Part shown: one piece after another, positions 757-43,374 of the stretch
Layout: each line of letters starts with the position of its first letter
Position numbering within the stretch: position 1 is the first letter of the stretch
Assembly (NCBI GenBank): GCA_021132495.1
Contig: GCA_021132495.1_4335.1
Origin: a phage
Strand: one strand, 5' to 3'
Length of the DNA stretch: 44,086 nt
Made by a program: the position numbers and the translations under genes
The notes under the pieces: generated by a model
Database searches by the model: none
The model's input: the letters and a program-made list of their open reading frames with translations, nothing else
What the model was told of the DNA's origin: nothing

Positions 757-854
757 AAAGCCCACCCCAGCGGAGTGAAGTACTCTCTACCTTGCTTACG
801 GCAACTATAGAAACTTTTAATTATTAGTGACTTGGGTTATTTAGACGGGATTTA

Positions 855-998
855 CAATAGAGTATGGCCCTTCCGAATGCAGGCAGCGACACTACACTCA
901 GTGCTGACGCACCGCTCCGTTTCCTGCCGCACCGCGGTCGCTTGTTCATACTTCACAAGCTCAGGTGGAGCTTAGCACATTTCTTAGTAAAAGTCAAT
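855..998. repeat. copy A of a ~145-bp repeated intergenic element (second copy at 33024-33167)
   Basis: About 85% identical to 33024-33167 by hand alignment; conserved arms, variable centre; contains hairpin aagctc-aggtg-gagctt at 957-973. Confidence 0.8.
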
Positions 999-1693: not shown

Positions 1694-3942
1694 ATATTGT
1701 TTTTGCAACGCTGCGCAACACATTCGATAAAAACCCTGTAGCGCGTGAGATGCCTCTCGAGCAGTTTGTGGAGTATGTCTGCGATACATCGAAGCGTTTA
1801 TCCGTGGATCCGTCGTGGTCTAAGGAAGAGTACGACGCTGCCAAGATTAAGCAGAAAGCTATTGCGCCTGTTGGGGGTCGCCGTAAAAGCGCTATCCTGG
1901 AAGACAGTGTGGTTAAGTTCGATTTTGACCATCTCAACCGTACTCAGTACCGCGACCTTACCCGCAAATTCAAGAACGCACCGTTCTTCAATATTCTGCA
2001 TACAACGGCATCGCATCAGCATGTGTGTAAAAACGGTGATTACGCCTTCCGCGTTCTGGTTCCGGCTCGCACGCCGTTTAACTCTAACGACGCGTGGATG
2101 GTCCAACGGGCTATTTGTGCAGAGTTAGAAATAGATGAAGCCTTGCGTGACCACTGCACGGAAGACGGCAACCGCCTTATCTATCTACCACATAGAGAGT
2201 CAAAGATAACGGTTACAGAAGGGCGTGTTATCCGTGCCGAGCGGTACATCAAGAAAGCCGAAGAGATGGGGTTGAGTAAACGTGAAGTTAAGACACTTGC
2301 CGCCGATGAGTATGGGCTTAACGCTGATATAGCGCATTTCTGCGAAGCCGAGCTTGGCCTTGACGCTTTATCTTCCGGGCGCGGGTACGAAGTCCCATGC
2401 CCTAACGAACATCTGCATACAGGCAAAGGCTCCACAAGCATCATGCTTGATGGTAAAGAAGTGCGCTTTGTGTGCCAGCATACAAACAACGGCGCTTGCA
2501 CCGAGCTTAACCGCCGACAGCATTTGGCCCTGCGTATGTGCGGCCTGCCAGACGAGCTTAACGTAGACAAGCAACCTATCAGTATTAACAGCATTCGTGC
2601 GGCTCTGCCTGATTTACCGGATGAAGAGATTGAAGAACTGCACCGCACAGAGAACGAGGAGCCTGTAACTTGCACGCTGGAAGACCTTGAAGAAGAGGAC
2701 GAGTTACCAGAACCGGTAAAGGCTGATTTCGTCGTTGAGGGGTACATGCCGTCGGATTGTATCTGGGATATTGTCGGGGAATCCGGCACGTACAAATCAT
2801 TCTATACGCTGGGGATGATGTACCTGAGCGCCGCCGGGTACCGGTTTGCGGGGGCTGACACCCAACGTTGCCACCATTTCTATATTGACGGCGAGGGTGG
2901 TGCAGCTACACGAACACGTATTGATGCACTCGCGGCTAAATATGGCGAGGAAGGTAAAGATTATGTACATGTCATCGATATGGGCGAAATACTCGCTACG
3001 CATGGTGATAAAAAAATTCCAGCTCTAATCCGCAGGATGCGCGAAACCGCAGGGGATGAACCTATTGGCATGGTTGCCTTCGACACCCTTAACCAGACGC
3101 TGGCCCTGACGATTGATAAGTTCGACGAGAACAGTTCATCAACGGCAATCGGTATGGGTAAAGTTATCGCCATCCTGAAAGAAGTGCGCGATGCAACTAA
3201 AGCCGCTGTCGGTGTCGTTCACCATACTCCGAAGGGCGGAAAGAAAGCCCGCGGCAGTGGAGCATTGTATGCGGGTGTCGACGTGGAACTGACAATCGAA
3301 CGCGCTACCGACCGTCAGATAAACGTATACCACTCTAAATTTAAGCACGGTCCTCAACAGAAGACGGTTGGCATGGTACTGGAGTCTGTACAGTTCCGTG
3401 AAGCACCGCCGCCGAAAGAGTACCGCGCGGTTGAGTTCCTCGGTAGCACAGAGGAATACGGCACAATAGTAAACCTCGACCTGCCTGAGCCGCACAAGGC
3501 GCTTGTATTGATGCCGTGGGGCTTCGAGCCATTCAAGACCGACGAGGAGAAAGAGAGGGGAGAAGGGTTAACTAACGAAGGTAAACAAAATGTACGTAAA
3601 ACCATAGAGAACGCCGTCAACAGTTCCGAGGCCACGATACTCGCGGCGTTTGAACTGGCGGAGGGGACCTACAACGGCAACGAGGGCATCACGGTATCCG
3701 CAGCGAATAAGCTCGCGCAGTCTGACCCCAACGCAAAGGCGTTTAACTCCAAAGAAGCCATAGAACGCGGGAAGATTAAGAAAATGGTTGAGGCTGGGTA
3801 TCTTGTTCCGGGTACTGACGAAAACAATCAGATAATCCCAGGCCGTTACAGACTGAACACCATGATAACAGATAACAAGATTCCGAAGACAATATACGAA
3901 CCGAATGAAATGCTGACAGTGACCGAGGAGGATTTGGAATGA
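1690..3942 (+). CDS. replicative primase-helicase-like protein (RecA/DnaB-type P-loop ATPase, Zn-binding region)
   Basis: 750 aa; Walker A GESGTYKS; Cys/His cluster CPNEHLH...CQHTNNGAC; acidic C-terminus TEEDLE. Confidence 0.6.
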   Translation: MNIVFATLRNTFDKNPVAREMPLEQFVEYVCDTSKRLSVDPSWSKEEYDAAKIKQKAIAPVGGRRKSAILEDSVVKFDFDHLNRTQYRDLTRKFKNAPFFNILHTTASHQHVCKNGDYAFRVLVPARTPFNSNDAWMVQRAICAELEIDEALRDHCTEDGNRLIYLPHRESKITVTEGRVIRAERYIKKAEEMGLSKREVKTLAADEYGLNADIAHFCEAELGLDALSSGRGYEVPCPNEHLHTGKGSTSIMLDGKEVRFVCQHTNNGACTELNRRQHLALRMCGLPDELNVDKQPISINSIRAALPDLPDEEIEELHRTENEEPVTCTLEDLEEEDELPEPVKADFVVEGYMPSDCIWDIVGESGTYKSFYTLGMMYLSAAGYRFAGADTQRCHHFYIDGEGGAATRTRIDALAAKYGEEGKDYVHVIDMGEILATHGDKKIPALIRRMRETAGDEPIGMVAFDTLNQTLALTIDKFDENSSSTAIGMGKVIAILKEVRDATKAAVGVVHHTPKGGKKARGSGALYAGVDVELTIERATDRQINVYHSKFKHGPQQKTVGMVLESVQFREAPPPKEYRAVEFLGSTEEYGTIVNLDLPEPHKALVLMPWGFEPFKTDEEKERGEGLTNEGKQNVRKTIENAVNSSEATILAAFELAEGTYNGNEGITVSAANKLAQSDPNAKAFNSKEAIERGKIKKMVEAGYLVPGTDENNQIIPGRYRLNTMITDNKIPKTIYEPNEMLTVTEEDLE

Positions 3943-14113: not shown

Positions 14114-16450
14114 TTAACTGTTTGCCAGGGTAGCCACTAATGTCTCAAGCGCTATAATCCTTTTCTCTAACTGAGCTGCTTTACGTCGCTGTAACGCAGC
14201 CTCTAATATCAATACCTCATCATAACGAATACCATACCGCTCCTCTGCCGCCGTAGCTTTTGTTAATACTTCCCCAGATTCCTCATCAATAATTTCCGGA
14301 GACGCTTCCCACTTATCGTAGCACAGGAAACCGTACTTAGTCGCGTCTAACCCGTGCCGGGTAAACGCCTCAATTGCTCGTTGGGCTACTACTCCAAAGT
14401 GCCACCTAGCTGCATCCTCCCCCTTCTCTGCAACCCTATCCAGGTACTTATATTGAACTAAATTAACTTCAGCCCAAGCGTCTAACATAGCGTCAGTTAA
14501 TTCCAGGGGTAGTGTCTTGGCTCTCTCGTCAGACGTAACCGTAAACGCTGTTTGAGTGAATCCGCCGGACAAAGCGCGACTTGCCGACCCGATAGCGACG
14601 GTGTTTGCACTGGATGGTGTAATAGCCGTCGGGGCTATTTGAATATACGCCGATGCGTCAGAGGCTAAGCGTAAATTACCATCAACCAGAGAAATAGTTC
14701 GATAAGTACCATCAGATGAGAGTAATTTTATATGAGAGGTCGTACCTCCACCAATAGCCAAAGATGTAGCCCCATCGGAAATTAGTCTGAATTTATCAGC
14801 TGTCACAAAAGGCAATGCAGAAGTATCTATATACTTAGTGAACCACTCAAACCTACCGGACATGGACCCTATGTATTGTCCTATAGCGGGGGCGTGTACC
14901 ACGTTACTGGTGGTAGTACCATCAATGCTAGAGACACCGGTTATAGTAGATAGTGAACTAAGAAGACTGTTCTTGGGTCCAGGGTGCTTTACTTCCACAA
15001 AGTTACGGGTAGTCCCTGTCGCTAGTGTAACAACCCCGGAAGCACTATACATAGGGAAAACCGATGCGTAGTTATTACTAGCTCCGTCTAAAAACCTAAT
15101 AGAAGTCGCGGTTTGCGTTTGCCCTAAACTATTAGTTCCGCTGCACCCAACCATTAGAATATTATCAGCGGCATTATAGTTGCCCTGTAATGTAACGCCG
15201 TGTGCTTGCGTGGCCTCGGAGGAGGAGTAATCAGCTACAACATTTGTCACCAGATTACCTGAACCCTTGCCGGCGACCACAGCGGCATACTTAGCGTTAT
15301 TAGCAACAACATTACTGATAATATTACTGCTAGGGGCATTGGTCGTCGCGGTGCCATTATAAACAACGTGCTGACAGCTTTGCCCAATGACGCCACTAAC
15401 AACATTACATTTAGCATCTGTTTTCAACTCAACCGCCCCGAATTGGGGGTAGTTTCGGGCGATAACATCGTTGATTATAGTATTACTTGCGGACTCAAAC
15501 AGCACGCACCCCGCTGTTTTATTTGTAGCATACCCGGAGTAGTCGCCCCGTATGCCGCTTACAATGTATCCAGACGGACCCCCATCGCTAGGGTATGCTA
15601 TTAAACTAAATCCAGTTCCCTTTGCATTTTTAAAATCAATACCTTTAATAGTAACGTCCTGCCCACCGGCGAAGGAAACCTGCTGACCCTGTGTGAAGTC
15701 CGTTGCCTTATTTCCTACAATACTCAGGGTGCTAAGTAGCCCTCCTGCAGGTTTATCAAAGATTAAGTGGTTTCCAGAATCGTTTGATTGTTTTAAAACC
15801 CCACCCCCTGTTCCGAATAGAGAGCATGTCGGGTGGGAGAGTAGCGACGTACTATACTCCCCTTGCGGTACAAGCACCCCGTTACTAGCTGTAAGCGCTC
15901 GGTTAAGGGCGTTTGTGTAATCAGGGTCAGTACCTAAATAGAAGTCCAGAACGGAAACTACTTCTCTATTTTTATCGTGTTGCGTCCTGCCGACAGCGTC
16001 GGTAAATGGTTGTCGGACGCCGACCATGGCATCACCTAATGTCGCATTGTCTGTGCTGGATAAATCATTGCGCAAATCCGGGTCAGTCTGCGGCTTCCAG
16101 TTAGCGTTACCAACCGGGTTAAACGATGCGGGGACAACAACCGGCAGAGTCCCGGTATACGAGTACCACGTCTTGCTTACAGGGTCATACACCACTTTGT
16201 CGCGGTCATTAACTGTTAACGTACCGCCGGTGGAAAAGTCCCACGATACGAGAGAAAAACCGGCATCACGCAACACAGCAGGAAGCGTCTTCTGGGTCTG
16301 CCCGGTAACAGGGTTGGTCGCGTAATCAATATCGGCGCCACCAGCAACCCCGCCGGATTTACCGGTGATAACCTCGGCTTCAAAAATTTGGTGTTTCTTG
16401 GCGGTTTGTAAATCCGCCAGGCTTAAAACGTCACCGCATCCGCTTGACAT
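14114..16450 (-). CDS. tailspike/tail fibre with predicted beta-helix depolymerase domain and C-terminal S74-type intramolecular chaperone
   Basis: 778 aa; conserved fibre N-terminus; Gly/Ser/Asn/Val-rich central repeats; C-terminal motif SDERAKT...WHFGVVAQ typical of self-cleaving chaperone domains. Confidence 0.8.
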   Translation of the reverse strand: MSSGCGDVLSLADLQTAKKHQIFEAEVITGKSGGVAGGADIDYATNPVTGQTQKTLPAVLRDAGFSLVSWDFSTGGTLTVNDRDKVVYDPVSKTWYSYTGTLPVVVPASFNPVGNANWKPQTDPDLRNDLSSTDNATLGDAMVGVRQPFTDAVGRTQHDKNREVVSVLDFYLGTDPDYTNALNRALTASNGVLVPQGEYSTSLLSHPTCSLFGTGGGVLKQSNDSGNHLIFDKPAGGLLSTLSIVGNKATDFTQGQQVSFAGGQDVTIKGIDFKNAKGTGFSLIAYPSDGGPSGYIVSGIRGDYSGYATNKTAGCVLFESASNTIINDVIARNYPQFGAVELKTDAKCNVVSGVIGQSCQHVVYNGTATTNAPSSNIISNVVANNAKYAAVVAGKGSGNLVTNVVADYSSSEATQAHGVTLQGNYNAADNILMVGCSGTNSLGQTQTATSIRFLDGASNNYASVFPMYSASGVVTLATGTTRNFVEVKHPGPKNSLLSSLSTITGVSSIDGTTTSNVVHAPAIGQYIGSMSGRFEWFTKYIDTSALPFVTADKFRLISDGATSLAIGGGTTSHIKLLSSDGTYRTISLVDGNLRLASDASAYIQIAPTAITPSSANTVAIGSASRALSGGFTQTAFTVTSDERAKTLPLELTDAMLDAWAEVNLVQYKYLDRVAEKGEDAARWHFGVVAQRAIEAFTRHGLDATKYGFLCYDKWEASPEIIDEESGEVLTKATAAEERYGIRYDEVLILEAALQRRKAAQLEKRIIALETLVATLANS

Positions 16451-30581: not shown

Positions 30582-31631
30582 TTAAGCACCGGCACCAGTT
30601 ACCAGGAAGGCAATCGGTACGTGCTTGCGGTCAACCACACGGTTCCAGTTGGAGGCGTTCGCCAGGTCCTGCCAGGAAGCAGAGCGCGGGGTAGTCTCGG
30701 TGCCGTTGCCAGTGATCACTGCACTGGTGAAGCTGTAACCAAACGGATGCAGCAACCAGGTCTTACGGGTCCACAGGGTTTCTACGCCACCACCGTTACC
30801 GCGAGACGCTTCGCGCTCGTATTCCAGCGGGTTGGACGGATTACCTTCACCGTAACCGATAGCGCCGTTGCCGAAGATGATGGAGATGAACTTATGGGTC
30901 GAGCCAGTGCTGACTACGGTCATGCTGTCGTCAACAATCACGCGGTAGCCCTGGTAGGTGGCGAACATGGTGTTGTTGTCCGCGTCACGGATGAAGTCGA
31001 TAAGCTGCTGCTTACGTGCCTGCGCATAAACGAAGCTATGCATCGCGATAGCCCCCAGCACTTCACCGCCGTTGGCCATCAGAGCATCGCCCATAGTCTG
31101 GGTAGCGTCGATGAACGCGCCCGCATCGAAGCCCAGAGTAGCAGACACGTCGATTACCATGTCATTCTTCTCGTGGTATGCGTCGGTAGCGGCTACGTTG
31201 TCATTGTACAGCCCGAGCGCGGTAGCAATCAGACGGCGTTGTGCCTGGCGCTGCCAGAAGTTATCCAGACGGGACGCTACGGATTGCAGCGGGTTCTGGC
31301 TGGTCAGTTCGACAGTCAAATCCGCCTGACCGAAACCTTCGTTCAGGTATGCAACGCGGGCCATCATCTCACCGGTCTGCACGTTACGCGGGGTGGCGAT
31401 GTCCTGGTATACATCGTTCGAGTAGTTAGGCTCGATAGAGGTATCAATCGCTTTCCAGAACGGAATATTAGCGACGTTGGACGGGCCGCGGGCAATCTCG
31501 GCAGCGTACGGGGTCGGGGTCAGAATACCAGACTGGAAGAACGCGGTTTTTTCTACCGGGTCCTCGGTCATATAAGACGCCAGGACCGGGATGTTGCCAG
31601 TTACGATATCGCCGATAGTGGTAATTGCCAT
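30582..31631 (-). CDS. major capsid protein
   Basis: 349 aa, directly after the scaffold-like gene and followed by an attenuator; assigned by position and size. Confidence 0.7.
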   Translation of the reverse strand: MAITTIGDIVTGNIPVLASYMTEDPVEKTAFFQSGILTPTPYAAEIARGPSNVANIPFWKAIDTSIEPNYSNDVYQDIATPRNVQTGEMMARVAYLNEGFGQADLTVELTSQNPLQSVASRLDNFWQRQAQRRLIATALGLYNDNVAATDAYHEKNDMVIDVSATLGFDAGAFIDATQTMGDALMANGGEVLGAIAMHSFVYAQARKQQLIDFIRDADNNTMFATYQGYRVIVDDSMTVVSTGSTHKFISIIFGNGAIGYGEGNPSNPLEYEREASRGNGGGVETLWTRKTWLLHPFGYSFTSAVITGNGTETTPRSASWQDLANASNWNRVVDRKHVPIAFLVTGAGA

Positions 31632-31633
31632 TA

Positions 31634-32335
31634 TTATTTCCTCAGGGCTTTAAGTTGCCGTTCAAATTCGGCAGGGTTCGATTTATACAGGGCTAAACGC
31701 TCTGCTTCACTCATGTCTTTAAACGCTGGTGCGGCCCCGCCGCCTTTGCTACCGGAAGCCCCGCCGCCGGAAGCTGCATTTGCTTTGATCAAATGCGAAA
31801 ACGCCTTGTGTTCGCGCAGGTATTTGCGGAACTGTTCCGGGTCAGTCGTGATTACGTTACCGTCTGCACCAACAAACTTAGTAACCACATCATCGCCTTC
31901 GAACTCAGTCTTAACGAACGGCGCAAGAATGTCCACTGCTTCTGGGGTAATAAAGTCACCCGCGAAAGAGCCTAGCACCGCTTTACGTTCGCTGCCGAGG
32001 ATACGCTCTGCCATTCTGGAGATGCGACCGTCTTTCTCGGCTAACACCGGGTCATACTGGCTACGAATCGTCTTTTCGAACTCATCCATCTTACCAGCGG
32101 CTTTTAACGCCTCCTGGTGCGCGCGCTGCCGTTCTTCTTCGGCCTCTTTTGCTTTGCGAGCGGCTTCTTTCTTCTCCGCCAACAATGCTTCCTGATTAGC
32201 CTTAAGCCCGGCAACTTCTTTCTCAATCAGCGCCTGAACTTCTTCAGCGGTGAACATTTTCGGCGCGTCACCGCCACCAGCTTTATCTTCTGCCCCAGCT
32301 TCTTCCTGGAACGGATAACGTAAAAAACGATTCAT
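31634..32335 (-). CDS. scaffolding protein
   Basis: Helical, charged KEAEEERQRAHQEALKAAGK; start taken as ATG 32335 rather than the TTG at 32389. Confidence 0.55.
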   Translation of the reverse strand: MNRFLRYPFQEEAGAEDKAGGGDAPKMFTAEEVQALIEKEVAGLKANQEALLAEKKEAARKAKEAEEERQRAHQEALKAAGKMDEFEKTIRSQYDPVLAEKDGRISRMAERILGSERKAVLGSFAGDFITPEAVDILAPFVKTEFEGDDVVTKFVGADGNVITTDPEQFRKYLREHKAFSHLIKANAASGGGASGSKGGGAAPAFKDMSEAERLALYKSNPAEFERQLKALRK

Positions 32336-32417: not shown

Positions 32418-32681
32418 CTATTCCAGAATATTCCTCACGTAATCCTGCAACATGAACACTTTCAGCCGCAGCTGCCGTACGCATTCAGCGTTCTGAACGT
32501 CGATAGCTAAATCCTCGTCAGCGTCGCTACTTGGCGCTGCCAGTTTGCACGGAGGCTGCATCATCGTCGTATCCGGTAATGGAATTAGCGTTTGCGACGG
32601 CGTGGGACTTGAGCAGGACGCGAGCATCGTCGAAAGTGCACACGCTGCGACCTGGCGTTTTAATGTATTTAACGACTTCAC
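32418..32681 (-). CDS. o-spanin (Rz1-like outer-membrane lipoprotein)
   Basis: Signal peptide with lipobox LASC, Pro-rich mature region; overlaps the i-spanin gene out of frame. Confidence 0.55.
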   Translation of the reverse strand: MKSLNTLKRQVAACALSTMLASCSSPTPSQTLIPLPDTTMMQPPCKLAAPSSDADEDLAIDVQNAECVRQLRLKVFMLQDYVRNILE

Positions 32682-32913
32682 GGGTAATCACATCTGATTT
32701 CGTCTTGCCTTCGTTGTCGGCGGCGGCGGCCTTTGATTCGTCCTGCTGCTGCCGTTGTGTTTTCTTAGCTAACTCAGCCTGTGCTTTTTGCTGTTGCTGC
32801 GAAACGAGATTAGCGCGGCCTTCGTGCCAGCCGCTGCGGTACTGATAAATGCCGTGTGTGTAAGCCAGGATGATGAAACATGCTCCTGCTACGACGGTTG
32901 CTTTAAGATTCAT
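32527..32913 (-). CDS. i-spanin (Rz-like)
   Basis: N-terminal TM segment, Gln/Ala-rich helical periplasmic domain, o-spanin ORF overlapping its 3' part. Confidence 0.6.
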   Translation of the reverse strand: MNLKATVVAGACFIILAYTHGIYQYRSGWHEGRANLVSQQQQKAQAELAKKTQRQQQDESKAAAADNEGKTKSDVITREVVKYIKTPGRSVCTFDDARVLLKSHAVANANSITGYDDDAASVQTGSAK

Positions 32914-33023
32914 GTTTCCCCTTTCTCGATAAGTAAAGCCCTGCCTTAAAGCAGGGCGCTAGTCCTTATCATTTAAACATAGAAACGGCGTAATCTCAGT
33001 AAACCAGTTACTTTTTACACAAG

Positions 33024-33167
33024 CAATAGAGTATGGCCCTTCCGAACGCGTCAGCGTAACTACACTCAGGACTTACGTCCCGCTCCGTTACCTGCCCGCG
33101 CCGCGGTCGCTTGTTCATACTTCACAAGCTCAGGTGGAGCTTATCACATTTTTAGTGAAAAGTCAAC
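33024..33167. repeat. copy B of the ~145-bp repeated intergenic element
   Basis: Aligned by hand to 855-998; same hairpin aagctc-aggtg-gagctt at 33126-33142. Confidence 0.8.
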
Positions 33168-33232
33168 TATTCGAATAGTTTATTCCAACATTTACAATTC
33201 GGTGGAATAACTGGAATACGTAAATAAATAGT

Positions 33233-33386: not shown

Positions 33387-33731
33387 ATGAAATATATTAA
33401 ATTAGCAGTAGCAGGTGTTGTAGCCGTTTGTTTGAGTGGTTGCGTAAGGTCGTTGCCAGACCCAGCTTTACAGGTTTATCAGGCGGGGGATACAACGGCA
33501 ACATGTAATCAGTTACTATCGAGAATCGCCACGACAAAACAAGCTCAAGCCAACGCTACGCACCGTGTTAATAAGCAAATAGGTACTAACGTTGTACTCG
33601 GTGTTACAGGCGCATTCCTGATTGTTCCGCTGTTCTTTATGGACACGGGCGCCGGGCCTTCTATGGACGAGATGACAGCCGGTAATCGTCTGTCGCAGTT
33701 ACAACAAACATACGACGAGAAATGCAAATGA
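33387..33731 (+). CDS. lipoprotein with additional C-proximal hydrophobic segment (accessory gene)
   Basis: Signal peptide plus lipobox LSGC; opposite strand to the surrounding structural genes, with its own promoter and terminator. Confidence 0.7.
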   Translation: MKYIKLAVAGVVAVCLSGCVRSLPDPALQVYQAGDTTATCNQLLSRIATTKQAQANATHRVNKQIGTNVVLGVTGAFLIVPLFFMDTGAGPSMDEMTAGNRLSQLQQTYDEKCK

Positions 33732-33803: not shown

Positions 33804-33826
33804 AAAGCCCCATAGCGGGGCTTTTT
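33804..33826. terminator. bidirectional terminator (aaagcccc-atagc-ggggcttt + T-tracts both sides)
   Basis: Between the plus lipoprotein gene and the convergent minus gene ending at 33828. Confidence 0.55.
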
Positions 33827-33827
33827 A

Positions 33828-34289
33828 TCATTCCGGCTTAGTAACCTTCGCCGCTTTACTGACGGCCTCTACCCCATCGGCATCAGTAACTTTAACGAAG
33901 TATTCGCCGACCGCATTAACCGTCAGAGACAGAGCCTCCTCAGGCGCATTCACCACTTCCTTACCGTCTTTGTACCAGGTCAGAGAATACGGCGCTTTGC
34001 CTACCTTAACCTCGACAGTGATGGTTGCGCTGCCGCCCGCCAGTTCAGCGTCCTGCGGTTGCGCAGAGAAATACACGTCGCCAGCGTCCGCCAGATACGG
34101 AATTTCATAAAGCATACCGGCGGCGGGCAACGCAATACCGGTTTTATCTGCAAACGGCATATCATCTACCGGTGTACCGAGTACACTTTCGTCCTCAATA
34201 AATACCACGTTCTCGCCAGAGCCAGACACGCGGGCGTACTGGACTACGCGACGAGACGGTACGTCAGTTACTTTGAAAAAGCCCATCAT
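33828..34289 (-). CDS. virion protein with C-terminal Ig-like domain
   Basis: TITVEVKVGKAPYSLTWYKDGKEV...GEYFVKVTDADG Ig-like strands. Confidence 0.45.
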   Translation of the reverse strand: MMGFFKVTDVPSRRVVQYARVSGSGENVVFIEDESVLGTPVDDMPFADKTGIALPAAGMLYEIPYLADAGDVYFSAQPQDAELAGGSATITVEVKVGKAPYSLTWYKDGKEVVNAPEEALSLTVNAVGEYFVKVTDADGVEAVSKAAKVTKPE

Positions 34290-40615: not shown

Positions 40616-41155
40616 TCAACCTTTCACCGCGCGCCCGATAGCCTCAGCCTCCTGCCACGGTTTACCGTCGAACAGCGCCAGACGACCGGCGGTACGGCGA
40701 CGCAGGCCTAGTAACGGTTTGCCGTTCTGGTTGATGAACAGCGCCAGCTTAGCCCGCAGCGTTGCAATATCACCAGAACGCAGTGCCTTACCTGTGCCAG
40801 TAGTAGCCGCAATCACACCGGCACCCGCGTTATACACCAGGTCGCACACTGCGTCGAACTGTGCCTGTGTCAATGAATGGTGCGCTGCAGCATCAACCGC
40901 CGCTACTGCCTTGGCCATATCACGATTCAGTAACAGGAGGCCTTGTCCCGGGGTGATGGTCTTGCCTGGCGTTACGTCTGGCCCATAATGACCGTACCCA
41001 ATAGTCAGGTACTTCTCATTTGGCGTAGCACGATACGCAGTTCCGCGGAACCCCTCGAACGCGGCGGTGAATTTGATGCCATTGTTGCTAATGTTTCGAG
41101 ACACGCTTATGTCCTCCGTACGACAGCCACGCCTGACGAATCTGACGCAGCGCAA
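40616..41155 (-). CDS. endolysin, phage lysozyme family (GH24-like)
   Basis: Motif FEGFRGTAYRATPNEKYLTIGYGHYG matches the lysozyme catalytic region; start uncertain. Confidence 0.8.
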   Translation of the reverse strand: MRCVRFVRRGCRTEDISVSRNISNNGIKFTAAFEGFRGTAYRATPNEKYLTIGYGHYGPDVTPGKTITPGQGLLLLNRDMAKAVAAVDAAAHHSLTQAQFDAVCDLVYNAGAGVIAATTGTGKALRSGDIATLRAKLALFINQNGKPLLGLRRRTAGRLALFDGKPWQEAEAIGRAVKG

Positions 41156-41354
41156 CTAATGTGATTAATGTCTCAGGCAGCGTCGGTGACATGCTGCCCT
41201 GTAACAGGTGGATACATCCGGCGGCGCAGACAATAGCAGTCAGAATATAAAGCACACGCCCGAACAGCCCGTCGTCCACGTGTTCGTTATACACGTTGAA
41301 CAGGGACGAAGCGCCCATTGAAAGCATACCACCAAACCAGAATAACTCATTCAT
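41088..41354 (-). CDS. small membrane protein (second holin component or antiholin)
   Basis: Two predicted TM segments; ATG at 41354 overlaps the holin stop; track start at 41447 judged too far upstream. Confidence 0.45.
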   Translation of the reverse strand: MNELFWFGGMLSMGASSLFNVYNEHVDDGLFGRVLYILTAIVCAAGCIHLLQGSMSPTLPETLITLVALRQIRQAWLSYGGHKRVSKH

Positions 41355-41655
41355 TACCACCTCCGCGACGTGCGATGTATTCTCCGGCGACAATGCCAGA
41401 GAGACGGGAATAAATTGGCATCCAGAGAATAGCAATGATGAATCCAAGGCCCGCTATTTCGCGTTCACCTGCGATACCGAACCATTGAGCGGCGAGAGGC
41501 GCACCGAATACGGCGCACGCAAAGCCAGTGGCGAGAAAACAGAGAGCATCGACAGGGCCGGTAATAGTGACTTTGTGTTGCCGTAAGCCTATTACCCCAC
41601 CAGCTAATGCGGCAGCGAGAAGCCACCCCGTCACTGTTTCAGTAAATTTATCCAA
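41347..41655 (-). CDS. holin
   Basis: 102 aa with multiple TM segments and charged C-terminus, directly upstream of the endolysin. Confidence 0.6.
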   Translation of the reverse strand: MDKFTETVTGWLLAAALAGGVIGLRQHKVTITGPVDALCFLATGFACAVFGAPLAAQWFGIAGEREIAGLGFIIAILWMPIYSRLSGIVAGEYIARRGGGNE

Positions 41656-43278: not shown

Positions 43279-43374
43279 ACCTGTTACACCACCTGTTACA
43301 CCACCTGTTACACCACCTGTTACACCACCTGTTACACCACCTGTTACACCACCTGTTACACCACCTGTTACACC
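43279..43374. repeat. tandem array of 8 perfect 12-bp direct repeats (ACCTGTTACACC), with a degenerate partial unit at 43271-43278
   Basis: Counted unit by unit; the array starts at the stop codon of gene 43368..43571 and fills the intergenic region. Confidence 0.95.

Follow-up and report, generated by a model that had tools for sequence, protein, structure and literature searches.

A probable two-component spanin of the Jersey family in the head gene block of a Kagunavirus genome, and the promoter-leader module upstream of it

The window analyzed here is a phage contig of 44,086 nucleotides (GCA_021132495.1_4335.1, from assembly GCA_021132495.1) and represents a Kagunavirus genome (Guernseyvirinae). 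Between an Ig-like head decoration gene (34289..33828) and the scaffold gene (32335..31634), it carries two open reading frames at 32913..32527 and 32681..32418. An earlier note, made from the sequence by itself, had read these frames as an overlapping Rz/Rz1-like spanin pair located in the head gene block, about 8 kb from the holin and endolysin genes. Both frames were found at these coordinates, on the minus strand (the strand was unstated in the note), and their identity as a spanin pair was borne out by PHROG matches, by GenBank annotation and by membership in the Jersey family. The location was also confirmed, with 7.7 kb separating the i-spanin start from the holin and endolysin genes. 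The scaffold gene lies directly downstream of the pair and is followed by the major capsid gene (31631..30582), and the holins, endolysin, terminase, portal, head genes, spanins, scaffold and capsid are all encoded on one strand. The pair is preceded by an SPP1 gp7-like head morphogenesis gene and the Ig-like gene, with scaffold and capsid coming after it; this placement is ancestral and conserved, being kept in Jerseyvirus PVP-SE2, Serratia phage Tsm2 and Dhillonvirus PaulFeyerabend. The gap upstream of the spanin promoter, which extends to a terminator behind the Ig-like gene, is an insertion hot spot that holds an opposite-strand gene in this window. A separate lipoprotein moron (33387..33731) adjoins the spanin locus.

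The i-spanin gene (32913..32527, minus strand) begins with ATG and encodes 128 amino acids that match phrog_2536, "Rz-like spanin", over their full length (E = 8.8e-54); weaker matches were obtained to the other Rz-like families phrog_8821, phrog_1152 and phrog_312, and the gene is annotated as i-spanin in Sciku. Residues 5-23 form a single N-terminal transmembrane segment (best 19-residue Kyte-Doolittle window, mean 1.59) that is kept in relatives, and the protein has no other hydrophobic segment. A single-sequence AlphaFold model of low confidence (pLDDT 60.5) places helices at residues 3-84 and 94-107. Hydropathy and this model are both in line with the transmembrane segment and helical domain described previously, and the helical domain would face the periplasm. 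The gene is preceded by a ribosome-binding site, AAAGGGG (32918..32924, minus strand), located 4-10 nt before the ATG, which is kept as AAAGGGG or AAAGGAG in Kagunavirus and Jerseyvirus relatives and has diverged in Serratia phage Tsm2.

The o-spanin gene (32681..32418, minus strand) starts with GTG, has a weak upstream Shine-Dalgarno match and encodes 87 amino acids. Its product matches phrog_5672 (E = 3.1e-30) and phrog_1267 (E = 2.5e-17) and is annotated as o-spanin in Sciku. The N-terminus reads MKSLNTLKRQVAACALSTMLAS up to the lipidation site, followed by the cysteine; it contains the lipobox LASC with Cys23, a Ser at +2 and basic residues K2, K8 and R9. The lipoprotein signal and Pro-rich mature part that had been described for this frame are thus both present, as judged by a PROSITE PS51257-type rule (K or R within the first seven residues and a lipobox Cys). 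Among 50 o-spanin homologues, the strict PROSITE pattern is found in 40, the other 10 have LLNGC with Asn at -2, and none has Asp at +2, the residue whose absence is the criterion for sorting to the outer membrane. The mature protein has 65 residues with seven prolines, all in the first 28, and a strongly conserved C-terminal part. It also carries two further cysteines, at mature positions 23 and 45 (full-length Cys45 and Cys67), which are invariant across the 50 homologues. The i-spanin likewise has an invariant cysteine, Cys92, in its presumed periplasmic part, and disulfides between the two proteins may form.

The two genes overlap out of frame over 155 bp (32527..32681, minus strand), as had been claimed, with the i-spanin first and the o-spanin running past the i-spanin stop, an architecture termed "overlapped". 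Within the overlap, one frame codes for the o-spanin signal peptide and Pro-rich linker and the other for the i-spanin C-terminus. The 155-bp overlap is also present in 41 of the relatives that were compared.

The pair belongs to a family that has already been catalogued. Kongari et al. (2018, BMC Bioinformatics 19:326; PMC6139136) defined the overlapped class, described overlapping genes for a type II membrane protein and a small Pro-rich outer-membrane lipoprotein with periplasmic cysteines as a spanin signature, and listed within that class a "Jersey" i-/o-spanin family whose members include Jersey, SETP3, K1G, K1H, K1ind1-3, HK578 and EP23; the overlap in phage Jersey is 155 bp, and o-spanin Cys45 and Cys67 are constant. 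The present pair shares the 155-bp overlap, Cys45/Cys67, the i-spanin layout and the position beside the scaffold gene. It differs from the family in nothing of substance, although its lipobox is in the LASC (Cys23) register whereas many Kagunavirus relatives have LSAC (Cys22). Identity of the o-spanin is 83-99% to Kagunavirus and ~60-66% to Jerseyvirus homologues. By tblastn, the K1ind1 o-spanin and i-spanin are 85% and 90% identical, the K1H o-spanin is 93% identical over residues 30-87, and the Jerseyviruses give 58-73%; the Sciku annotation of the pair cites K1G ADA82248/ADA82249. Pfam and NCBIfam scans of both spanins gave nothing above cutoff (best DUF2514, E = 0.012), which leaves PHROGs, GenBank annotation and the literature as the basis for placing the pair in its family. 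The spanin genes of this phage group and their separation from the holin and endolysin genes are already known, the latter having been reported in PMC6763661 and PMC9825357.

Among the better-studied systems, the pair resembles lambda Rz/Rz1 in pairing a type II protein of the inner membrane, whose periplasmic domain is coiled-coil-like, with a small Pro-rich outer-membrane lipoprotein read from the other frame of the same DNA. Both proteins have periplasmic cysteines in both systems, and the mechanism, membrane fusion once the wall has been degraded, is presumed to be the same. The sequence link to lambda consists of PHROG family labels and the sub-threshold DUF2514 match only. Unlike Rz1, which lies wholly inside Rz, the o-spanin here reaches 109 nt past the i-spanin, and the lambda pair directly follows S and R, whereas the present pair lies among the head genes. 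The prototype of the overlapped class is P2 LysB/LysC, in which the o-spanin starts within the i-spanin gene and ends beyond it, but that pair sits in the contiguous P2 lysis cassette and its sequence families are unrelated to those found here. T4 PseT.3/PseT.2 is the classic precedent of an unlinked spanin (PMC6139136), although it belongs to the "separated" class without overlap and to a different family, and lies outside a head gene block.

The holin and endolysin genes had been placed at 40616-41655, and PHROG matches across the locus (phrog_2359, phrog_2508 and phrog_7/33703) together with Pfam substantiated this. A holin (41655..41347) is followed by a second holin or antiholin (~41354..41088) and an endolysin (~41101..40616), all on the minus strand; the endolysin is a canonical lysozyme type without a SAR domain (Pfam Phage_lysozyme, E = 6.6e-27). 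A lambda-type contiguous cassette has its spanins right after the endolysin. Here the endolysin ends at 40616, and the seven small ORFs downstream of it have no transmembrane segment or lipobox; a search near the endolysin for a second spanin, a u-spanin or a disruptin-like candidate gave none.

Upstream of the spanins, a sigma-70-type promoter-like site (33138..33166, minus strand) consists of a -35 element TTGACT, a 17-nt spacer and an extended -10 element TGaTAAGCT. The expression T[TA]GA[CT]T-N14-16-TGnTA[AC]GCT matches 47 of the 48 Kagunavirus and Jerseyvirus loci at this position, and the 48th (L028) fits when C is allowed at position 2; a promoter at this spot was also predicted by the annotators of PVP-SE2. 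Ahead of the -35 element lies a repeat block (33167..33220, minus strand) with two direct TTATTCC repeats, the inverted repeat GGAATA-N3-TATTC and the palindrome AACTATTCGAATAGTT. The palindrome is perfect over 16 bp and its last TT forms the first two bases of the -35 element, so that it reaches ~33165. In alignment, the block is conserved between Kagunavirus and Jerseyvirus, and its repeats and palindrome are candidate binding sites for a regulator. Farther upstream, a bidirectional intrinsic terminator (33804..33824, both strands; -13.5 kcal/mol, GC stem and U-run) follows the Ig-like gene, is annotated in Sciku and PVP-SE2, and divides the upstream head genes from the spanin unit. Downstream of the spanins, the first terminator-like site (30562-30549, minus strand) comes after the capsid gene.

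The promoter and the i-spanin gene are separated by a leader of ~212 nt (32926..33137, minus strand) that is likely to be a conserved structured RNA. RNAalifold on 31 sequences gave 29 pairs, nine of them with changes on both sides. The core helix has 92.8% paired cells (slid controls, 27-40%) and a covariation score of 0.382 (controls, at most 0.068), and covariation supports the ~125-nt core of the leader; the minimum free energy z-score of the leader is -2.68. Just upstream of the i-spanin ribosome-binding site, a GC-rich hairpin (32938..32957, minus strand) with an 8-bp stem (-15.7 kcal/mol) is followed by UUUACUUAU. This hairpin is a terminator-like match with a fold z-score of -3.66, shows compensatory changes in relatives (C-G to U-A, G-C to A-U and C-G to G-C), and is possibly a partial terminator, an attenuator or a processing site. 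Rfam gave no match for the whole window at the gathering threshold and, on the leader at E <= 1, only a chance-level match to wcaG (E = 0.65); no tRNAs were found in the window. A 36-aa ORF inside the leader (33118..33008), labeled "hypothetical protein" in relatives, was considered as a fourth lysis peptide or a regulatory peptide and rejected as probably non-coding. It has no Shine-Dalgarno sequence, its ATG is absent in locus L029, and the corresponding part of the leader is deleted in Jerseyvirus; moreover, its frame shifts between the two leader copies of this genome and is closed in the second copies of other phages.

The second copy, made up of the core promoter and the leader's first ~125 nt, lies at 840..997 on the minus strand (nhmmer with a leader profile, E = 1.3e-30, and alignment); the repeat block is absent from it. 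The copy heads a minus-strand array that crosses the window ends and reaches the holins, endolysin and terminase; a comparison with SHAK7858 shows these ends to be contiguous. Behind the copy come a hairpin that lacks a U-run and then another promoter. E. coli Kagunaviruses carry the module twice. A second copy is also present in SHAK7858, Sciku, RP180, fFiEco03 and phiEc4. In Jerseyvirus PVP-SE2 (bases 1-31600) none was detected at E <= 1e-3, and the duplication is thus apparently limited to Kagunavirus-type genomes. The promoter-leader module and its duplication may be new.

In lambda, pR'-6S RNA-tR' is built from a promoter, a ~200-nt structured leader and a terminator-like hairpin upstream of the lysis and late genes, and HK022 carries two paralogous sites, putL and putR, downstream of two promoters in one genome. 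The resemblance of the present module to both is one of layout and is offered as a lead only; neither a sequence nor an Rfam match accompanies it, and no Q-like protein was identified. We regard as speculative, and on balance improbable, a reading in which the leader would be a new cis-acting RNA (acting by put-like or 6S/tR'-like antitermination, attenuation or processing) that coordinates the split halves of lysis with virion assembly.

With a probability of about 0.9, the two ORFs encode an overlapped two-component spanin from the Jersey family, which occurs in Guernseyvirinae and related siphophages; the spanin function itself is proposed from the signals, the family assignment and analogy with lambda. 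That the lipobox frame might be a chance out-of-frame ORF, and the 128-aa membrane protein something else, such as a head-assembly or membrane-anchoring factor, is suggested by the location between head genes far from the endolysin, the GTG start with its weak ribosome-binding site, the lack of a Pfam or NCBIfam family above cutoff, and several GenBank records in which the o-spanin is truncated or not called at all. Moreover, within the overlap the i frame is constrained (pN/pS 0.41) and purifying selection on the o frame itself is not apparent (pN/pS 1.02); this is expected of a signal peptide and linker and lends no positive support to the o-spanin. We nevertheless find a chance origin scarcely credible. 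Over the 105 nt read solely by the o-spanin frame, past the i-spanin stop, pN/pS is 0.10, compared with 1.05 and 2.52 in control frames, and this part of the o-spanin is under strong purifying selection; the corresponding value for the non-overlapped part of the i-spanin is 0.28. The earlier note would have been contradicted by a lipobox ORF that relatives lack, but both spanin frames are intact in 47/47 related IMG/VR viral contigs, the o-spanin frame remaining open down to ~60% identity, and all 47 retain the lipobox Cys despite the shift in register between LASC and LSAC. The o-spanin ORF is therefore more than a product of chance. It also has the two invariant mature cysteines and a PHROG family independent of that of the i-spanin, and a related pair of "separated" architecture was found in locus L040, as in the FSL SP-031 type (PMC6139136), which shows the o-spanin to be a gene in its own right. 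Homologues of the o-spanin occur in 665 phage records and those of the i-spanin in 528; homologous genes carry the labels i-spanin/o-spanin or Rz-like spanin in GenBank, and both frames are conserved across hundreds of phages.

A real couple of inner-membrane protein and lipoprotein could also have its main role outside lysis, for example in superinfection exclusion or in envelope remodeling during assembly, expressed together with the head proteins. Exclusion is the role of some phage lipoproteins, among them T5 Llp and lambdoid Cor. The pair is unlinked from the holin and endolysin and lies right beside the lipoprotein moron, and in the literature we found no Jersey-family spanin that had been put to an experimental test. 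This role is nonetheless very unlikely in our judgment, as Gram-negative phages whose holin and endolysin are canonical do not normally manage without a spanin, u-spanin or disruptin-like protein and the surroundings of the endolysin offer no other candidate, while the weaker PHROG matches tie the i-spanin to further Rz-like families. Furthermore, the gene architecture is a spanin signature, and unlinked spanins have a precedent in T4 pseT.3/pseT.2 (PMC6139136).

Sequence signals predict that the spanins probably open, as first cistron, a transcription unit that continues through the scaffold and capsid genes. The earlier note had placed the final lysis step under transcription of the structural gene block. 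Co-transcription with the scaffold and capsid genes, the better supported part of that claim, is likely given the terminator at 33824-33804, the conserved promoter-like site and leader, and the absence of a terminator-like site until past the capsid gene. The spanins might instead be expressed from read-through transcripts begun far upstream at the holin/endolysin array, with the local "promoter" irrelevant. In favor of this, the whole holin-to-capsid stretch is encoded on one strand, and the leader hairpin and the Ig-gene terminator could leak. In addition, an RNA-Seq study of K1B4, a member of the Guernseyvirinae, cites the lysozyme and capsid genes among those that illustrate its middle stage (PMC12645636); neither that paper nor its supplements give an expression value or class for the spanin genes. 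We hold read-through to be rather unlikely, since the bidirectional terminator is strong, conserved and annotated in relatives, the opposite-strand gene in the gap between terminator and promoter would collide with such transcription, and the promoter-like site is kept across two genera. With a local start preferred, the conserved sigma-70-type promoter with its upstream repeats and the ~210-nt structured leader ending in the GC hairpin would drive the spanin-scaffold-capsid unit.

The other part of the claim, that this arrangement controls the lysis step, is doubtful. In the lambda model, spanins are built up ahead of lysis and restrained by the intact peptidoglycan; the timing depends on holin triggering and not on spanin transcription. 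By analogy with lambda Rz/Rz1, the anchor of the i-spanin would lie in the inner membrane and that of the o-spanin in the outer membrane's inner leaflet, and the C-termini of the two proteins would bind across the periplasm, with intermolecular disulfides stabilizing the complexes. These would build up in the late period, immobile in the peptidoglycan mesh, until the holin has fired and the endolysin has broken down the wall, upon which the complexes would fuse the inner and outer membranes and free the progeny. Because spanins need only be present before the holin fires, their separation from the holin and endolysin genes leaves the logic of lysis unchanged. Separate control of the lysis step is further argued against by the one-strand array and by the duplication of the core promoter and leader ahead of the holin/endolysin array, in view of which the two lysis loci may share control.

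The spanin arrangement itself adds nothing new to lysis biology, as T4 already provides an example of unlinked spanins and the separation seen here is in print for the subfamily. Its value lies mainly in annotation, given that in several GenBank relatives one or both genes are labeled "hypothetical" or the o-spanin is truncated. Phages of this group are under development for therapy and as synthetic-biology chassis, and the location of the third lysis function matters for the re-engineering of their genomes. The promoter-leader duplication, if true, would be of greater consequence and offer a small testable handle on the order of middle and late transcription in a virulent siphophage without an RNA polymerase of its own.

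Both reading frames of the putative spanin pair proposed in an earlier note are present, on the minus strand. The i-spanin candidate (32913..32527) encodes 128 amino acids from an ATG codon preceded by AAAGGGG at a distance of 4-10 nt. It has a single hydrophobic stretch at residues 5-23 (Kyte-Doolittle mean 1.59), and a single-sequence AlphaFold model of low confidence (pLDDT 60.5) places helices at residues 3-84 and 94-107, consistent with the proposed N-terminal membrane segment and helical remainder. The o-spanin candidate (32681..32418) encodes 87 amino acids from a GTG codon with a weak ribosome-binding site, and its gene overlaps that of the i-spanin out of frame by 155 bp. Its N-terminus reads MKSLNTLKRQVAACALSTMLAS-C-SSPTPSQTLIPLPDTTMMQPPC..., which satisfies a PROSITE PS51257-type lipoprotein rule (Cys23, basic residues among the first seven positions, and a +2 residue that is Ser and not Asp). 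The LASC lipobox described earlier is thus borne out, as is the proline-rich character of the mature part, which carries seven prolines, all within its first 28 residues. Further cysteines occur at full-length positions 45 and 67.

A full-length match (E = 8.8e-54) links the i-spanin to phrog_2536 ("Rz-like spanin"), and three further Rz-like PHROGs match it weakly. The o-spanin matches phrog_5672 and phrog_1267, each also labelled "Rz-like spanin". No model reached its cutoff in Pfam and NCBIfam scans of either protein. Among phage records searched with tblastn, o-spanin homologues occur in 665 and i-spanin homologues in 528, spanning Jerseyvirus, Kagunavirus, Dhillonvirus and siphophages of Serratia and Klebsiella. 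Homologous genes in GenBank are already labelled i-spanin and o-spanin; the Sciku annotation cites the K1G "overlapping inner/outer membrane spanin" (ADA82248/ADA82249), and many other records use "Rz-like spanin". A "Jersey" family of overlapped two-component spanins, comprising Jersey, K1G, K1H, K1ind1-3, HK578 and others, has been described with a 155-bp overlap in Jersey and constant o-spanin Cys45 and Cys67 (Kongari et al. 2018; PMC6139136). The window pair has identical values, which place it in the Jersey family on every feature that can be assessed from sequence, and the claim of an overlapping i-/o-spanin pair is correct. In one relative (IMGVR_UViG_3300045988_013393, positions 2501-3089), the architecture is "separated", with a 118-aa i-spanin and an o-spanin that has another signal peptide (MNKLFLSAVIIGITGC) and begins close to where the i-spanin stops. 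Sequences flanking this pair, with the same leader among them, are otherwise Kagunavirus-like, and the arrangement corresponds to the FSL SP-031 type discussed in PMC6139136.

An IMG/VR scan with the i-spanin as query identified 47 related loci with identities from 98% to 58%. Both spanin frames are kept in 47/47 of these, and conservation of the lipobox ORF in related genomes, on which the earlier note had made its reading depend, extends to the lipobox cysteine in every locus. The register of the lipobox shifts, being LASC (Cys23) in one set of Kagunavirus genomes that includes the window, LSAC (Cys22) in another Kagunavirus set, and LLSGC or LLNGC in Jerseyvirus. Such shifts would be expected if selection acted on the presence of a lipobox and not on one specific sequence. 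Three other cysteines, o-spanin Cys45 and Cys67 and i-spanin Cys92, are invariant among homologues. In 39 distinct ungapped sequences, pN/pS in the o-spanin-only region was 0.10 in the o frame, compared to 1.05 and 2.52 in the two control frames, and it was 0.28 in the i frame of the i-spanin-only region. Within the overlap, the values were 0.41 (i frame) and 1.02 (o frame); this i-frame dominance fits an overlap that codes just the o-spanin signal peptide and proline-rich linker. The pattern as a whole indicates that the o-spanin is a real gene.

PHROG and Pfam matches support the holin and endolysin genes at 40616-41655, all on the minus strand: a holin (41655..41347), a second holin (~41354..41088) and a lysozyme-type endolysin (~41101..40616). 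The endolysin lacks a hydrophobic N-terminus, so it is not of the SAR type. Small ORFs downstream of it carry no membrane or lipobox signal, so no second spanin is apparent next to the endolysin. The spanin start lies 7.7 kb away, and the pair follows an SPP1 gp7-like head morphogenesis gene and an Ig-like decoration gene and precedes the scaffold (32335..31634) and major capsid (31631..30582) genes, in agreement with the head-block location noted previously. Its position is identical in Sciku, SHAK7858, Jerseyvirus PVP-SE2, Serratia phage Tsm2 and Dhillonvirus PaulFeyerabend, in which the o-spanin is only ~36% identical, so spanin placement in the head module is an old arrangement. Separation of spanins from the holin and endolysin has been stated in print (PMC6763661; PMC9825357), and T4 spanins likewise lie away from t and e (PMC6139136). 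With the split published and the family catalogued, the feature is already known, and the pair is an ordinary representative of that family at its customary locus.

A search of phage records with 801 bases around the pair matched 210 records, nearly all of Kagunavirus or Jerseyvirus (Guernseyvirinae) from E. coli and Salmonella. The closest was Escherichia phage vB_EcoM_SHAK7858 (98.3% identity). Comparison with SHAK7858 showed the window ends to be contiguous, so the window is a complete, circularly permuted genome of ~44 kb. In SHAK7858, the second holin and endolysin genes are separated by an HNH endonuclease gene, which is absent from the window. Its record (OR594183.1) is filed as Autographiviridae; Studiervirinae; Kayfunavirus and named "EcoM", although its sequence and gene content are those of a Kagunavirus siphophage; the Kayfunavirus filing is probably a mistake in the record.

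On the minus strand, the Ig-like gene runs to 33828 and is followed by a strong predicted bidirectional terminator (33824-33804). In the simplest relatives, the gap from this terminator to the spanin promoter spans 317-342 nt; others have as much as 1117 nt there, and the gap is an insertion hot spot. A promoter-like site (33166..33138, minus strand; TTGACT, 17 nt, TGaTAAGCT) is present in 47/48 loci of both genera. Upstream of it is a repeat block (33165..33220, minus strand) conserved between Kagunavirus and Jerseyvirus. In this block, TTATTCC occurs twice in direct orientation, GGAATA-N3-TATTC forms an inverted repeat, and AACTATTCGAATAGTT is a perfect palindrome of 16 bp whose center lies ~41.5 bp before the predicted transcription start, a position typical of class II activators. 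A leader of ~212 nt precedes the i-spanin ribosome-binding site and ends in a GC hairpin (32957-32938; -15.7 kcal/mol) with compensatory changes among relatives. Downstream of the spanins, no terminator-like site occurs before 30562-30549, 3' of the capsid gene. Given this layout, the pair probably opens a transcription unit that continues with the scaffold and capsid genes. The suggestion of structural-block control is thus plausible as regards co-transcription, but control of the last lysis step was overstated, because spanins need only be present before the holin fires.

Inserted in the variable gap on the opposite strand is an ORF (33387..33731, plus strand; 114 aa) with an LSGC lipobox (Cys19) and a second hydrophobic segment at residues ~67-87; a separate promoter, in the TTGCRC-N17-TACTAT class, serves this ORF. 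The ORF matches phrog_13472 (no assigned function), with at least 99% identity in 11 Kagunavirus records and ~30% in Aeromonas podophages. It is probably a moron; a superinfection-exclusion role is only a guess. Along the window, the palindrome AATAG-N4-CTATT forms eight 14-bp sites and has a ninth pattern match at 14621-14639, where the gap is 9 nt; 0.14 matches were expected. Of the 14-bp sites, seven lie inside intergenic sigma-70-like promoters of two classes, TTGCAC-N17-TACTAT (659, 23632, 33249 and 43106) and TTGACA...TATAGT (4557, 7106 and 11772); the eighth (43264) has no assigned class. The motif corresponds to the fBC-Eco01 "phage promoter" consensus obtained by PHIRE, tgAATAGTa-ccTATTat-T (PMC9825357), and probably acts, within early promoters, as operator for a phage regulator. 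Site 43264 adjoins a tandem repeat (43279..43374) in which ACCTGTTACACC, 12 bp long, recurs in eight perfect copies. The repeat belongs to the small-gene array, lies immediately upstream of a terminator-like hairpin (43250-43229) and looks like iterons, as in an origin or protein-binding array.

The lysis function of the pair is inferred by analogy with lambda Rz/Rz1, the established spanin model. The i-spanin would be anchored N-in in the inner membrane, while the o-spanin would receive lipid on Cys23 and be directed to the outer membrane. The two C-termini would meet within the periplasm, with disulfides of the conserved cysteines stabilizing the complex. The peptidoglycan mesh would block spanin action until holin triggering and endolysin clearance of the wall, whereupon the complexes would fuse the inner and outer membranes.

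A leader profile search of the window identified a second leader copy (968..840, minus strand; E = 1.3e-30), accompanied by the core promoter seen at the spanin locus, a predicted sigma-70-type TTGACT-17-TGnTAAGCT, here at ~997..969 (minus strand). The module copies occupy 33166..32926 and 997..~840 (both minus strand) and share a leader core of ~125 nt at ~92% identity. In an alignment containing both kinds of copy, 92.8% of cells in the core helix are paired, compared to 27-40% with slid partners. The covariation score is 0.382 (at most 0.068 in slid controls) and was reached by 0/500 shuffles; one pair shows three pair types. Covariation thus supports the predicted long core helix. A small ORF annotated inside the leader in GenBank relatives was rejected as coding, as it is not conserved as an ORF, and an Rfam search returned no family for the leader. 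A put-like or 6S/tR'-like role for the leader RNA is no more than a lead.

Two leader places occur in ~54/181 records. The second copy has a counterpart at the corresponding position in SHAK7858, Sciku, RP180, fFiEco03 and phiEc4, whereas a search of Jerseyvirus PVP-SE2 (bases 1-31600; E <= 1e-3) gave none. The repeat block of the spanin promoter is not shared by this copy, which may mean different regulation of the two promoters. This copy sits in a divergent control region flanked on one side by the replication arm and on the other by a long minus-strand small-gene array that crosses the window ends and reaches the holin, endolysin and terminase genes. One copy of the module precedes the putative spanin-scaffold-capsid unit and the other heads the array toward the holins and endolysin, a further link between the lysis loci. 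Of all the features described, only this duplicated promoter-leader module may warrant separate attention.
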